Notes under the pieces: model-generated
What the model saw: the letters and a program-made list of their open reading frames with translations, nothing else
What the model was told of the DNA's origin: nothing
Databases searched by the model: none
Assembly: GCA_039934295.1 (NCBI GenBank)
Contig: JBDTMN010000004.1
Location: 4,840 to 68,839 of the forward strand
Reading direction: 5' to 3'
DNA length: 64,000 nt
Origin: Candidatus Tayloriibacteriota bacterium
GTDB lineage: Bacteria; Patescibacteriota; Minisyncoccia; Phycocordibacterales; HO2-43-120
Made by a program: the position numbers and the translations under genes
Part shown: piece after piece, positions 38,974-44,507 of the stretch
Position numbering within the stretch: the first letter of the stretch is position 1
Layout: each line of letters opens with the position of its first letter

Positions 38974-39018
38974 TGGGATAGCTGTTAGGTGTTAGGTGTT
39001 AGGTGTTAGTTTGAAAAT

Positions 39019-39231
39019 TTACTTTTCAAAATTCTCTCGGGAAAGTTTTGACTGCCGCAAAATAGAGCTAAATGTGCCAGACGGAATTTGTTTTCTATTT
39101 GCGGGTACGATAACAGTGAGCTTTCTTACAATGTGAAAAAATTTCGCGTGACTTCCTTTTTGTGACACAAACGCAAAGCCTTTATTCTCAAGAACTTTTA
39201 CGATTTCACGTGATGAAAACAGTTTAGGCAT
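39019..39231 (-). CDS. hicA: HicA-family toxin (mRNA interferase)
   Basis: SREIVKVLENKGFAFVSQKGSHAKFFH...TVIVPANRKQIPSGTFSSILRQSKL matches the HicA/YcfA pattern (KxxEIIKxLEKxGF..RQKGSH...H...TVP.H..KEL..GT...IL). Confidence 0.7.
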   Translation of the reverse strand: MPKLFSSREIVKVLENKGFAFVSQKGSHAKFFHIVRKLTVIVPANRKQIPSGTFSSILRQSKLSRENFEK

Positions 39232-39442
39232 GCTGAAAAGAGGTTTCCGCGAGAGAAAGCGAGGTAACCTCGGGGATTGAAGGAGTTTTTATGTCTTCAA
39301 AATAAAGCTCGATAGCTTCTTTGATATTAGCGAGAGCTTCTTTGCGCGTCTTGCCAAAACTTGAAATATCAACGTTAAGGCACTGGGCAACATAAAACTT
39401 TCCTTCTTTCCAAACGACATTTTTTAGTCGGACTGTTTTCAT
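39224..39442 (-). CDS. hicB: HicB-family antitoxin
   Basis: 72 aa: VWKEGKFYVAQCLNVDISSFGKTRKEALANIKEAIELYFED. HicB/UPF0150 RNase-H-like fold pattern. Overlaps hicA by 8 nt. Confidence 0.6.
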   Translation of the reverse strand: MKTVRLKNVVWKEGKFYVAQCLNVDISSFGKTRKEALANIKEAIELYFEDIKTPSIPEVTSLSLAETSFQHA

Positions 39443-39483
39443 ATTTCAATACTACAAAAAAAGTGTCGGCAAATCAAGCGACC

Positions 39484-39561
39484 CAAAGAGATATCCTGAT
39501 CCACCATTTCTTCCAAAATGAGGCGTTCAGGAGTGATGATTTTTAAGTTGAGTTGAGGCAT
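39484..39561 (-). pseudogene. Duplicated 5' fragment of atpC (start codon plus about 22 codons) upstream of hicB
   Basis: 39495-39561 matches 38908-38973 at about 90% identity. Encodes MPQLNLKIITPERLILEEMVDQ then diverges with no long ORF. Confidence 0.5.
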
Positions 39562-39581
39562 TTGAAGATAGCTGTTAGCTA

Positions 39582-39794
39582 TTAGGTGTAAGTAAAAAAA
39601 TCGGAGCTCAATTTTTTTGCAATCTCTTCAGCTTTTTCTTCAGGAATATGGACCGTATGCAATGTCCATTGTTTTAGCCACGGTGTTTTGTGTTTTTCTA
39701 CGACTTTTGATACCCTTGTACCAATTACAAAAACCTGTGCGCATACAGATTTATCGGAAAGACTTTCTTCAATAATCACGCCTTTGTAATTCAT
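39582..39794 (-). CDS. Small hypothetical protein flanked by inverted AGGTGTT-type repeat arms
   Basis: 70-aa ORF. AGCTGTTAGCTATTAGGTGTAAG (39565-39590) and CCTAACACCTAAAACCTCACAGCTAACACCT (39795-39826) are inverted copies. Confidence 0.35.
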   Translation of the reverse strand: MNYKGVIIEESLSDKSVCAQVFVIGTRVSKVVEKHKTPWLKQWTLHTVHIPEEKAEEIAKKLSSDFFTYT

Positions 39795-39890
39795 GTCTTC
39801 CTAACACCTAAAACCTCACAGCTAACACCTGCCTTAAGAGCTCCTTTCCATTCCTCGTCCGTCGCGGACTCGTCAGGACGCGGGTATTGA

Positions 39891-41237
39891 TTACAACGCG
39901 CCGCGCATATAAAACTCCCCTTCCGCCTTGTCGTCATGCTTGCCGTCCAAAATTTCTTTGAACGAGCGGATGGTTTCGGCTAGGGGAACATACGTTCCTT
40001 TTGAGCCGGTAAATTGTTCCGCCACGAAGAATGGCTGGGAGAGGAATTTTTGGAGTTTGCGCGCACGTGTAACAAGCGCGCGATCGTCTTCGGAAAGTTC
40101 CTCCATGCCGAGGATTGCAATGATGTCCTGCAAGTCTTTGTATCTCTGAAGCACGCGCTGAACTTCCCTGGCGACAGTATAGTGCTCAATTCCTACGATA
40201 TTTGGGTCCAAAATAGTGGATGAGGAGTCGAGAGGGTCCACAGCAGGGTAAATTCCCATCTCAGTAAGCGAACGGTTCAAGACAACAGTTGAGTCCAAGT
40301 GTGAAAATGTCGTGGCTGGAGCCGGGTCGGTTAAGTCGTCTGCTGGCACGTACACCGCCTGCACAGAAGTGACAGAACCTTTATCGGTCGAAGTAATTCG
40401 CTCCTGCATGTTTCCCATTTCTGTCGCCAATGTCGGCTGATATCCCACCGCAGAAGGAATTCTGCCCAGAAGCGCGGACACTTCCGAGCCAGCTTGGGTA
40501 AATCGAAAAATGTTGTCGATAAAGAAAAGCACATCCTTGCCCTCCACATCACGAAAATGTTCCGCCATCGTTAGTCCCGAAAGAGCCACGCGCATACGTG
40601 CTCCGGGTGGCTCATTCATCTGACCAAAAACCATGGCCACTTTGTCCAAGACTTTAGACTCTTTCATTTCATGGTAGAGGTCGTTGCCTTCTCGAGTTCT
40701 TTCTCCGACTCCGGCGAACACAGAATACCCTCCGTGATTTGATGCAATGTTATGAATCAATTCCTGAATAACCACAGTCTTCCCCACTCCCGCTCCTCCA
40801 AAAAGTCCCACCTTTCCACCTTTCAACACCGGACAAATGAGGTCAATAACTTTGATTCCAGTTTCAAGAATTTCCACCTTCGTGGCCTGCGCTACATACG
40901 CTGGAGCTTTTCGATGGATAGGAGAAATTGTACCAGTGACTGCAATGCCGTCATCAATCGTCTGTCCTAGAACATCAAAAATCCTCCCTAGAGTATGCTT
41001 CCCAACCGGCACGGAGATAGGCGCTTTTGTATCGGTAACTTCCATTCCACGGGACAGCCCGTCAGTAGTGTCCATTGCAATCGCTCGCACAGTATTTCCC
41101 CCGATATGCTGTTCGGTCTCAAGAGTGAGCATCTTGCTCCCGTTCATCACGGTAAGCGCGCTATAAATATCCGGCACGTGATCCTCAAATTGGACATCCA
41201 CCACTGGTCCGATTACTCGCTTGATAGTTCCTTTCAT
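39891..41237 (-). CDS. atpD: F1 ATP synthase subunit beta
   Basis: Walker [19 protein letters not shown]-like region GMEELSEDD. Confidence 0.95.
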
Positions 41238-41295
41238 AAATTATTGAATAATTATGTTTCTCGGCTTTTAACTTTACACTTTATACTTTACACTT

Positions 41296-42989: not shown

Positions 42990-43103
42990 ATTTTACTATT
43001 TAAAACTTATAAACCTACATTTTAAAACTACTTTTAAATTCTCCAATCGCCTTTTTCAACTCCGCCTCTCCTACATCTGTTCACATTTTTGTGAATAATT
43101 TAT

Positions 43104-43334
43104 TTAATTAAAAAATTGCAGAAGTGCTTCAGTGTCCAACTCGGCTTGAAAAATAATCGATTTTATTGTTTTTGGAGCTAAAACTCTATTATGTTGCGGA
43201 ATGACAACACGTAAATGAGTTTTGATTGAATGGCGCAAATGAACATGGCTTCCCCTGGTGTGATGCAAATAAAACCCGGCTTCCAGCAAAATCGGAATAA
43301 TTTGTTTGGCAGTCAATCGCTTCAGCCGGGGCAT
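43104..43334 (-). CDS. hicA: HicA-family toxin
   Basis: KQIIPILLEAGFYLHHTRGSHVHLRH...VVIPQHNRVLAPKTIKSII. YcfA/HicA pattern with GSH and a conserved His. Confidence 0.7.
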   Translation of the reverse strand: MPRLKRLTAKQIIPILLEAGFYLHHTRGSHVHLRHSIKTHLRVVIPQHNRVLAPKTIKSIIFQAELDTEALLQFFN

Positions 43335-43340
43335 AGAAAT

Positions 43341-43592
43341 TTAAAATGAAACTGATAGCCGTAAACTCGCAATATCTCCTTCAACCGGCACTTTTTGGCG
43401 ATCTACTTTTAATCCCTCCAAATAGCATTGAATGGCTTCTGTTGCCATCTTTTTTGCATCGTCAAGATTTTTGCCTTCGGTTACAAGGCCGGGAAGCGAA
43501 GGCACTACTACCGTATAACCATCATGCTCATTTCGCTCAAAAACAGCAGTAAAATTGTAGATCTTCTTTTTCATTTTCCCATTATGACTCAT
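43341..43592 (-). CDS. hicB: HicB-family antitoxin
   Basis: IYNFTAVFERNEHDGYTVVVPSLPGLVTEGKNLDDAKKMATEAIQCYLE has the typical HicB/UPF0150 signature. Confidence 0.7.
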   Translation of the reverse strand: MSHNGKMKKKIYNFTAVFERNEHDGYTVVVPSLPGLVTEGKNLDDAKKMATEAIQCYLEGLKVDRQKVPVEGDIASLRLSVSF

Positions 43593-43605
43593 TATTTACA
43601 GAAAA

Positions 43606-43704
43606 TCAAACTATTTTAGCCGCCACCAATTCCATCGCCTTGGTGATCTTCTTGGTGCTTTTGACCGATTTTATTCGGCGTTTGATTTCTTTGGTACCCT
43701 GCAT
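43606..43704 (-). pseudogene. Duplicated 5' fragment of atpG (32 codons, MQGTKEIKRRIKSVKSTKKITKAMELVAAKIV*) immediately upstream of hicB
   Basis: Part of the 199-bp exact duplicate of the real atpG 5' region. Runs into a stop after 32 codons. Confidence 0.55.
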
Positions 43705-43728
43705 GAAGTTAAAGTTATAAAGTGGAAA

Positions 43729-43774
43729 GTGACAGAATTCCTATTCTGTCATCCCCGCGAATGCGGGGATCCAG
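43729..43774. repeat. Palindromic element GTGACAGAATTCCTATTCTGTCATCCCCGCGAATGCGGGGATCCAG (copy within duplication B)
   Basis: Identical to 42277-42322. Confidence 0.7.
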
Positions 43775-43790
43775 TTAAAAGTGGGAAAAA

Positions 43791-44507
43791 TTACTTTGTG
43801 AATTTGAAGGTTGAAAGAATTTGATCCAATATTTGCTCATGTTTACTTATTGCGTCATGTTGAGCTTGAGTTTGCGCAGGAGTTGCATCGTTTTTCCCGG
43901 TATTTATATAACCCTCATAGCCGACTTCGTGCCAATGGACATGGGAATTGACGATGTAACAATAGTTATCGTGAATCGCGCGATACTGACTTTCCACACC
44001 TCTCACTCCACCCATCGCAGCATCTCCTACCTTATCGCTGAAAATTGAAAATGTATTGCCATTGATTACTTTTGTGAGAGTGCTCGTGTGCGGTTGGTCT
44101 CCATAATCTTTAGTTAGACAAACGCTCAAATTATAAGGGGTATTGTCCGCATTTACTTCAAAAGATGAATCATCAATATAATTTTCCTTTGCTCCCACAT
44201 CGGAAATTTTTGTAATCTGATATTCGTAAAAACCCTGTTTTTCGATCTTATCGTCTAATTGATATTCGGACGGATATTGAAATTCAAATCCATATTTTTC
44301 ATTTTTATATATTTTCCAATCAGCCATATCTACCGAAGTGACAAGATTCTTATCAGTTTTACTGAAATAAGGAAACTTATCAACATAACAGTTTTCCGCG
44401 ACTCTATCATTGTAACAAGTGATAAAAGCGACCGTCTTTAGACCGTATATTCCTACAATCACAACGGCCACCGCTATAACAACCCCCCAAATAATCTTTT
44501 TATTCAT
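43791..44507 (-). CDS. Hypothetical secreted/membrane-anchored protein (paralog of 42339..42989)
   Basis: N-terminal TM helix, WKIYKNEKYGFEFQYPSEY motif, C-terminal ...LSTFKFTK. Confidence 0.5.
   Translation of the reverse strand: MNKKIIWGVVIAVAVVIVGIYGLKTVAFITCYNDRVAENCYVDKFPYFSKTDKNLVTSVDMADWKIYKNEKYGFEFQYPSEYQLDDKIEKQGFYEYQITKISDVGAKENYIDDSSFEVNADNTPYNLSVCLTKDYGDQPHTSTLTKVINGNTFSIFSDKVGDAAMGGVRGVESQYRAIHDNYCYIVNSHVHWHEVGYEGYINTGKNDATPAQTQAQHDAISKHEQILDQILSTFKFTK

Follow-up and report, generated by a model that had tools for sequence, protein, structure and literature searches.

The F1Fo ATP-synthase (atp) operon described here is located on the minus strand of a 64,000-nucleotide (nt) stretch (the window, to which all coordinates refer) of contig JBDTMN010000004.1, positions 4,840 to 68,839, from the Candidatus Tayloriibacteriota bacterium assembly GCA_039934295.1. 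Besides the gene set atpB-E-F-H-A-G-D-C, this operon contains two putative HicB-HicA toxin/antitoxin pairs, and ahead of each pair stands a truncated 5' copy of the next intact atp gene. The extra genes are cargo inserted into an operon that was ancestrally compact, comparable gene-end repeats surround cargo in about five other Patescibacteria lineages, and the fragments carry a signature of foreign origin. We give about an even chance to an account in which host recombination at conserved atp gene ends imported the cassettes, gene conversion came afterwards, and toxin/antitoxin addiction aided their retention.

Anatomy of the two loci

The genes are arranged, in minus-strand order, as atpB-E-F-H-A / Par2 / atpG' / hicB2-hicA2 / atpA' / Par1 / atpG / atpD / orf70 / atpC' / hicB1-hicA1 / atpC, where a prime denotes a gene fragment. 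At locus 2, the atpA-atpG junction, the intact alpha subunit gene atpA (44548..46047; an open reading frame (ORF) with 80-87% identity to its orthologues and with Pfam families assigned on the identical gene of a Logan contig) is followed by Par2 (43791..44507), a cargo ORF for a secreted or membrane-anchored protein of 238 amino acids without a match in Pfam or NCBIfam, and by the upstream copy of a 199-nt block (43618..43816). This copy is composed of the last 24 nt and the stop codon of Par2, a double-hairpin element (43710-43775), and atpG', codons 1-29 of atpG (43704-43618). Next are hicB2 (43341..43592; the start may instead be at 43574, which would give 77 amino acids), hicA2 (43104..43334) and, beginning 11 nt past the hicA2 stop, atpA' (43015..43092), which corresponds to the last ~25 codons of an atpA and contains an internal TGA. 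The fragment is a 77-78-nt copy, at 83% identity, of the atpA 3' end (44625-44548), the last ~77 nt of atpA being its reference copy. The second cargo gene of the junction, Par1 (42339..42989), encodes a PsbP-related secreted protein of 216 amino acids (Pfam PsbP_2, E=1.4e-11; also named PsbP-related at NCBI), and the downstream copy of the block (42166..42364) runs into the intact gamma subunit gene atpG (41296..42252; Pfam ATP-synt, E=2.9e-83). The repeat finder and a direct comparison agree that the two blocks (42364-42166 and 43816-43618) end exactly after atpG codon 29 and match base-for-base, which confirms the identity noticed in an earlier, sequence-only reading of this DNA.

At locus 1, the atpD-atpC junction, the intact beta subunit gene atpD (39891..41237, an ORF) is followed by the left arm of a heptamer-array hairpin (39801..39830, an inverted repeat 87% complementary to its partner arm) and by the ORF orf70 (39582..39794), inserted cargo within the hairpin loop that encodes a small conserved protein of 70 amino acids without a family match in Pfam, NCBIfam and PADLOC searches. 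The upstream repeat copy (39492..39592), which holds a copy of the hairpin arm and atpC' (codons 1-22), precedes hicB1 (39224..39442) and hicA1 (39019..39231), and the downstream copy (38904..39009), with the right hairpin arm and codons 1-22 of atpC, leads into the intact epsilon subunit gene (atpC, 38530..38973; Pfam ATP-synt_DE_N, E=8.2e-20). Repeat finding and alignment show this repeat (39592-39492 versus 39002-38904, ~100 nt) to be longer than first reported and to include part of an upstream heptamer-repeat arm; its identity is 89% across 71 nt and 86.6% across 97 nt. The two atpC starts differ by three synonymous codon changes and one K-to-R replacement. The atpC' ORF (39561-39439) comprises 22 atpC codons and then 18 out-of-frame codons, and its TGA overlaps the hicB1 ATG (ATGA); at locus 2, 13 nt separate the end of the atpG' ORF from the first in-frame hicB2 ATG. 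With alignment z-scores of 32-90 versus shuffled sequences, the window repeats are far beyond chance, and the observation that each pair follows a 5' fragment of the next atp gene stands with small coordinate corrections.

Between the two arms of the locus 1 hairpin (39830-39801 and 39009-38980) there are now 791 nt, a loop that holds orf70, atpC', hicBA1 and the second arm copy. Placed side by side again, the arms fold at -37.5 kcal/mol (z=-5.1) and resemble the hairpins of the ribosomal-protein operon, and the atpD-atpC spacer was probably once a heptamer-array hairpin of the cistron-separating kind found in this genome. Hairpins of this kind, whose arms consist of (AGCUAUU or AGGUGUU)n and a complementary array, are located at 30018-30106, 32300-32392 and 32765-32856, between genes of the ribosomal-protein and atp operons, and fold at -32 to -38 kcal/mol (z about -5). 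The same design, built of other heptamers, is present in other Patescibacteria (sequences retrieved for comparison are given by L numbers: L040, 9568-9588; L119, 4582-4653 and 5060-5134; L120, 3170-3215), and a role in RNA processing or stability is a possibility.

The double-hairpin element of the 199-nt block is present in six copies in the window, at 1535-1600 (-), 24677-24720 (+), 25526-25569 (+), 42258-42323 (-), 43710-43775 (-) and 50912-50955 (+), two of which fall within the block copies. Its sequence reads CCCCGC-N4-GCGGGG, then GACAGAAU-N3/4-AUUCUGUC, with compensatory changes in the second stem (GACAAAAU/AUUUUGUC), and it folds at -24 to -26 kcal/mol (z -4 to -6), the copy at 43710-43775 reaching -26 kcal/mol (z=-6). 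Since the copies occur in both orientations relative to the genes, the element is better described as similar to repetitive extragenic palindromic (REP) sequences than as a plain terminator. It has no match in Rfam, and a resemblance to a clustered regularly interspaced short palindromic repeat (CRISPR) was dropped in view of the dispersed single copies in both orientations. The Rfam scan of the 38-49 kb interval gave one sub-threshold chance match only.

Profile searches support the HicA and HicB assignments for three of the four proteins above threshold, and thus the presence of two HicA-type toxin/antitoxin pairs inside the atp operon. The predicted mRNA-interferase toxins HicA1 (70 amino acids; E=9.7e-16) and HicA2 (76 amino acids; E=4.2e-13) both match the Pfam family HicA_toxin (PF07927), whose small members have a dsRBD-like fold, over its full profile, and both contain the conserved G-S-H motif (QKGSHAKF, TRGSHVHL). 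HicB2, a short antitoxin with only the N-terminal, partial RNase H-like domain of the family, matches HicB_lk_antitox (E=1.2e-11) over profile positions 2-65 of 123; PF15919 is annotated on 92 of the 92 homologues listed, and a database entry of 77 amino acids from Candidatus Taylorbacteria, 100% identical to HicB2, is named HicB family antitoxin. HicB1 (72 amino acids) stays below threshold, with a match to DUF7387 at E=1.9e-5 and 25.4 bits versus a cut-off of 27.9. Its family of ~1,950 proteins carries the name HicB at NCBI and JGI, and hhalign relates it to the HicB2 family with 76% probability (E=2.3e-5) across 27 columns. Compared with solved structures, the HicB1 profile has a HicB antitoxin as its top match, but a weak one (E=0.27), and the single sequence has none; the AlphaFold model, of low confidence (predicted local distance difference test score, pLDDT, 62), displays a beta-beta-alpha-beta topology and gave no significant fold match in a Foldseek search made with this low-confidence model. 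Taken together with the family naming, HicB1 is probably a short antitoxin of the HicB type. NCBIfam and PADLOC returned no match for the Hic proteins.

Within each pair the genes are co-oriented, with an overlap of 8 nt for hicB1/hicA1 and a spacing of 6 nt for hicB2-hicA2, and the hicB-hicA pairing is kept in the homologous cassettes of L165, L168, L169 and L171. The HicB proteins are short (72-83 amino acids) and lack the C-terminal DNA-binding domain, ribbon-helix-helix (RHH) or helix-turn-helix (HTH), which serves autoregulation and is typical of the HicAB family, though not universal in it. At 29% identity between HicA1 and HicA2, and with HicB sequences that hardly align, the two pairs are unrelated cassettes.

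All junctions were reproduced by Logan contigs from the runs SRR26386571 and SRR26386621, which match the window at 100% and span 48832-43787 (L083), 42195-38980 (L082), 39008-32781 (L001) and 43816-42335 (L084), with L082 running as a single contig through all of locus 1. As the truncated junctions recur at 100% identity in independent assemblies, an assembly chimera was ruled out as source of the fragments. The 199-nt repeat and the heptamer repeats are the only places at which the contigs end. The first 30 nt of L084 (1,482 nt) equal its last 30 nt, so that it closes on itself with a period of 1,452 nt, the unit being block-hicB2-hicA2-atpA'-Par1. Such a contig is expected for the tandem arrangement, and equally for an excised circle; it is compatible with a circle and no proof of one. 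We consider it extremely improbable that locus 2 is an assembly artefact, the real order being atpA-Par2-block-atpG and the 1,452-nt unit deriving from another strain or from a free circle. An exact repeat of 199 nt does exceed the resolution of short k-mers, and both the breaks at the block and the closure of L084 would be seen in that case. Against it, the junctions between atpG' codon 29 and hicB2 and between hicA2 and atpA' are unique sequence found again in the independent assemblies, a 1.45-kb circle lacking a replication gene would hardly maintain itself, L082 covers the whole of locus 1, and analogous structures are found in the unrelated assemblies L002, L086, L095 and L165.

Cargo and gene-end repeats in related operons

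The operon was compared with ~160 related atp loci retrieved by AtpG scans of species-representative genomes and JGI metagenomes. The closest relatives found in these scans share 74% (species-representative genomes) and 72% (JGI metagenomes) AtpG identity, neither an empty-site strain nor a donor was among them, and the look-up of the exact AtpG protein gave no record. As a rule, 10-70 nt separate atpA from atpG in the related loci, and 15-200 nt lie between atpD and atpC. Because the atp operons of most relatives are compact, the ancestral operon is taken to have been so and the extra genes of the window to be inserted cargo; the G+C content of the inserted segments is 31-40%, versus 45-52% in the atp genes. 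Small-gene insertions at atp junctions are common in the phylum and include secreted proteins, four-helix-bundle proteins named 23S rRNA intervening-sequence proteins (IVP), a methyltransferase and toxin/antitoxin pairs. The four-helix-bundle genes are found as single-gene insertions in atp gaps of L038 (1173-1532), L040 (9205-9552), L054 (8050-8436) and L095 (7966-8328).

Gene-end repeats comparable to those of the window surround cargo in about five other Patescibacteria lineages. In L002 (74% AtpG identity) the order is atpA / PemK-like toxin / atpA' / NUDIX / atpG' / MazE-MazF / MNT / HepT / atpG / DUF4258-DUF2283 / atpD, the atpA' fragment having 99 nt and 84% identity, and L086 contains an atpG' fragment orthologous to that of L002, followed by the same toxin/antitoxin genes. 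L095 displays atpA / PemK-like toxin / atpA' (83 nt, 90%) / atpG. Closest to locus 2 in cargo are L165 and L166, with atpA / intergenic sequence plus atpG' codons 1-9 / hicB / hicA / atpG, where the hicBA genes belong to the hicBA2 family (HicB 80%, HicA 68% identity) and the repeat of 46 nt has an alignment score of 58 versus a null maximum of 31. In L008 (2694-3538), a gene for 278 amino acids in the atpA-atpG junction begins with a duplicated atpG ribosome-binding region and six codons (MAGTKE); it has in effect acquired a copy of the start of the host atpG. Finally, the atpG 3' end of L093 (1492-1629) is duplicated in tandem over 61 nt, with a 22-nt spacer between the copies and without cargo. 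Inside the atpG' of L002 (4486-4524) and L086 (2163-2202), a 39-nt palindromic insertion (CCCCAGTAGCAGAAATCGGAATTTCGCTACGGGG...) was observed that is absent from their intact atpG and looks like a miniature inserted hairpin element.

The recurrence in L002/L086, L095, L165/L166, L008 and L093 bears out the suggestion that the architecture is non-random. Fragments of the atpG' and atpA' kind also accompany MazEF, MNT/HepT and PemK-like genes. The sequence-only reading had regarded duplicated fragments without hicBA as evidence against insertion-associated duplication, and such fragments exist in part, with other cargo elsewhere and, for the L093 duplicate, with none. The gene-end repeats are thus a recurrent phenomenon, neither specific to hicBA nor obligatory.

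Members of the hicBA2 family (75-87% identity) and of the hicBA1 family (83-85%) also reside in unrelated contexts elsewhere, from which the hicBA cassettes would seem to move on their own. By comparison with L171, the hicBA1 cassette measures ~490 nt, beginning ~45 nt before hicB and ending with the hicA stop. Homologues of two further cargo genes occur in other contexts as well: an orf70 homologue with 60% identity lies in a different context in another genome (L024, 1417-1614), and one of the nearest non-self homologues of Par1 (45-55% identical) sits outside any atp context, between rpoC and dnaG. This rpoC/dnaG interval is the sole homologue context recovered for Par1, and the donor arrangement was not found.

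Origin of the fragments and route of insertion

The differences between repeat copies were counted at codon positions 1, 2 and 3. For atpA' of the window these are 1, 1 and 12 (P=8e-5 against one third), corresponding to nine synonymous changes, two replacements and one stop. The counts are 1, 1 and 6 for atpG' of L002, 2, 1 and 4 for atpC' of the window, 3, 7 and 11 for atpA' of L002 and, counted from the sequences, 0, 2 and 6 for atpA' of L095 and 0, 0 and 4, all synonymous, for the atpG 3' duplicate of L093. Pooled, they amount to 7, 12 and 43, with 43 of the 62 differences at the third position, where our own estimate for a local copy in neutral decay next to a gene under constraint is roughly 46%. 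In addition, the resident atpA end is more similar to its orthologues in L002 (87%) and L004 (86%) than to its own atpA' fragment (83%). Because the differences are mostly at third positions and the atpA end is closer to the orthologues of other species, the fragments appear to have diverged as parts of working genes in other lineages, not as decayed local copies, and presumably arrived by transfer together with the neighbouring cargo.

These results do not favour the tandem segmental duplication first proposed, nor a local duplication-insertion in general, in which a template switch or an unequal crossover would have copied the junction and trapped toxin/antitoxin DNA, the fragments decaying thereafter with occasional gene conversion. 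Such a local origin agrees with the complete identity of the 199-nt block, as for a recent copy or a conversion, with repeat lengths that range from 26 to ~125 nt across lineages as if produced by template switching, and with the L093 duplicate, which has only 22 nt between its copies. It is nevertheless unlikely, in view of the concentration of differences at third positions (12 of 14 for atpA', 43 of 62 pooled) and of an atpA' as distant from the resident atpA as the orthologues of other species, and it offers no reason why toxin/antitoxin genes were trapped so often. The two Par genes, which had been taken for duplicated paralogs, are no recent pair: their 50% identity is confined to a 30-residue motif, outside of which they are almost unalignable.

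The 199-nt block has a different history from atpA'. Being 100% identical beside diverged parts, it points to a recent within-species event or to gene conversion, and gene conversion would be the simplest account of this identity next to the diverged atpA' and Par genes. Since the diverged atpA' is old and the block identical, locus 2 would record at least two events of different age. The earlier idea that conversion maintains the atpG promoter and start is supported as far as conversion is concerned; promoter and terminator scans did not rise above shuffled expectation and gave no sign of an atpG promoter within the block.

The account that we favour to the extent stated above, import through the conserved ends of atp genes, would run as follows. 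A compact atp operon would have gained two unrelated HicB-HicA cassettes, a PsbP-related gene in two divergent versions, and orf70. The cassettes would have entered on DNA from related lineages that also bore the conserved end of the adjacent atp gene, and host homologous recombination would have paired this incoming gene end with the resident gene, either by one crossover with a circle (Campbell type) or through a homologous join on one side and an illegitimate join on the other. The outcome would be a cassette between two gene-end copies, of which one is intact and functional and the other a stranded fragment. The topology found agrees with the Campbell type, as the cargo and one copy of the flanking chromosomal segment make up a closed unit, and cargo between two copies of a target segment is the exact product of one crossover between the chromosome and a circle carrying cargo and segment. 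At locus 2 the atpA' repeat would be old and foreign, and the 199-nt block recent or homogenised by gene conversion. Patescibacteria take up DNA by natural competence and insert it at homologous sequence (PMC10633639; PMC12455944), and a cassette forced by transformation into an essential gene gives tandem duplications that retain an intact copy (PMC3784515).

If the repeats recombined with each other, a cassette-free operon would remain and the excised DNA would be a circle, 1,452 nt long for locus 2 or ~590 nt for locus 1. HicA is expected to cleave mRNA and to be checked by a labile HicB, so that cells losing the pair would be penalised and the repeats with the enclosed cargo would persist. 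The short HicB proteins lack a DNA-binding domain, for which reason the cassettes are probably expressed by read-through from the atp promoter. The stranded atpG' and atpC' starts may serve as translated leader ORFs, since the atpC' stop overlaps the hicB1 start and the atpG' ORF ends shortly before the hicB2 ATG.

The same features could be read as adaptive domestication, in which HicBA would act as regulators tying mRNA cleavage to ATP synthase expression and the leader fragments would tune translation. The co-orientation of the toxin/antitoxin genes with the operon, the lack of a DNA-binding domain in HicB, the overlap between the atpC' stop and the hicB1 start, and the perfect conservation of the atpG' coding part in the window and in L165 speak for it. 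We find domestication very unlikely, as most relatives' operons are without a toxin/antitoxin pair, the cargo varies from lineage to lineage and the same cassettes occur in unrelated contexts; a review reached the same conclusion for relA-mazEF-mazG and dinB-yafNOP of E. coli (PMC7167474).

Several points weigh against import by host recombination. The atpG' breakpoints of the window and of L002/L086 differ by no more than ~5 nt, and for the start of atpA' the window and L095 agree to within ~3 nt; random illegitimate joins account for this near-coincidence less well than a site-specific process does, or an inherited homology segment travelling with changing cargo. About 50 of the 59 cargo-bearing atp-operon gaps are without a repeat, and no repeats were found around homologous hicBA cassettes outside atp operons, so that either repeat formation is not obligatory or the repeats decay fast. 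For atpC' taken alone, the excess at third positions is weak (P=0.17). Neither a circle nor an empty site nor a donor was seen among the available genomes, the closest of which have ~70-74% AtpG identity, and a de Bruijn graph that lacks one edge of a tandem repeat could also produce L084. A Campbell integration requires a pre-existing circle already carrying target DNA, whose origin it leaves unexplained. Addiction, co-transcription and toxicity are steps that we infer, as are the recombination pathway and excision.

The breakpoints in particular would suit larger integrase-bearing elements that targeted conserved sites in atpG, atpA and atpC, supplied a replacement gene end and then decayed until the addictive toxin/antitoxin pair and a repeat resembling an attachment site were all that was left, or else cassettes served by an integrase encoded elsewhere, given that the positions nearly coincide across distant lineages with different cargo and that elements of this type import precisely such a foreign copy of a gene end. 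As in integrative elements, the inserts have target sequence directly repeated at either end. Their lengths vary from 26 to 199 nt over all cases, unlike the fixed-length target duplication of a transposon or insertion sequence. No integrase, transposase or resolvase was found among the ORFs of the 38.5-46 kb interval nor among 20 further ORFs of the window, and the inserted segments of L002, L086, L095 and L165 contain no recombinase. The two hicBA cassettes have no terminal motifs in common, and no terminal inverted repeats were found at the cassette ends. At least three different target sites would moreover be needed within one operon, and the breakpoints are not constant: atpG' of L165 breaks at codon 9, not 29, and atpA' of L002 starts ~30 nt further upstream than in the window and L095. 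We therefore regard such elements as quite unlikely.

Import by host recombination can be extended to a complete cycle, in which toxin/antitoxin cassettes of Patescibacteria would be recombinase-free mobile units whose homology address is a 50-200-nt piece of a highly conserved essential gene. They would exit the chromosome as small circles excised by RecA or as fragments from lysed cells, enter a new cell by natural competence, and integrate through a single homologous crossover at the essential gene end without breaking the gene. Toxin addiction would block the reverse reaction, and the 5' fragment would be reused as a translated leader in a strongly expressed operon. We put this cycle forward as a doubtful proposition; if true, toxin/antitoxin genes would have a general way of spreading that has not been described so far.

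Known systems and neighbouring genes

Duplicated gene ends typify both islands with an integrase and insertion-duplications of the Campbell type. Genomic islands inserted at the 3' end of tRNA genes, at the 5' end of dusA or at guaA carry a replacement gene end, a tyrosine integrase and a short identical core. The loci described here resemble them in the direct repeat of a conserved gene end, of which one copy is foreign, and in the gene staying intact, and differ by the absence of an integrase, a cargo of 0.5-1.5 kb, repeats of 46-199 nt at 83-100% identity, and several sites within one operon. Toxin/antitoxin modules are also known to stabilise integrons, integrative conjugative elements and prophages. 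The likeness lies in a pair that resides in DNA readily lost by recombination and would penalise its loss; here the stabilised unit would be a cassette with at most one cargo gene and not a large element.

Closer in setting are the E. coli modules of relA-mazEF-mazG and dinB-yafNOP and ccdO157 between folA and apaH, which are likewise lodged between cistrons to which they are functionally unlinked (PMC7167474). Like the present cassettes, these pairs are missing from many relatives and occupy plastic sites without mobility genes (PMC7167474). In the window, by contrast, the host operon encodes the essential F1Fo ATP synthase, and two unrelated HicBA pairs are each bracketed by ends of the adjacent essential gene; in the literature we found no description of gene-end scars for the E. 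coli pairs. The same review states that the mechanism by which toxin/antitoxin modules integrate is unknown (PMC7167474). As the two loci preserve apparent integration scars, the open question of how such modules move without mobility genes becomes testable.

Merodiploidy in Streptococcus pneumoniae (PMC3784515) offers a resemblance only: foreign DNA lies between target copies, an intact essential copy is selected and the repeats may collapse, but these are laboratory events with repeats the size of an insertion sequence and duplications of ~100-900 kb, and the present ones are natural, small and possibly stabilised by toxin/antitoxin genes. Homology-facilitated illegitimate recombination of naturally competent bacteria (PMC3240628), with its one-sided anchor in a conserved gene, accounts for the lack of a recombinase and for variable junctions; its classical cases usually delete recipient DNA, and it does not predict near-coincident breakpoints. 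A limited literature search found no description of recombinase-free toxin/antitoxin cassettes between foreign essential-gene ends that recur across lineages. The compact essential operons of genome-reduced bacteria are not shielded from selfish cargo, and short exact repeats inside such operons are sites of potential instability and gene conversion.

Two further features were observed in the window. Beside the double-hairpin copy at 50912-50955, the region 50981-52768 contains adjacent nuclease-type genes, one for a PD-(D/E)XK family protein and one for a protein in which an ATP-cone domain is fused to an Mrr-type restriction endonuclease domain. The alanyl-tRNA synthetase gene (36037-37851) encodes only 604 amino acids, which is short compared with the ~870 amino acids of a typical bacterial enzyme.

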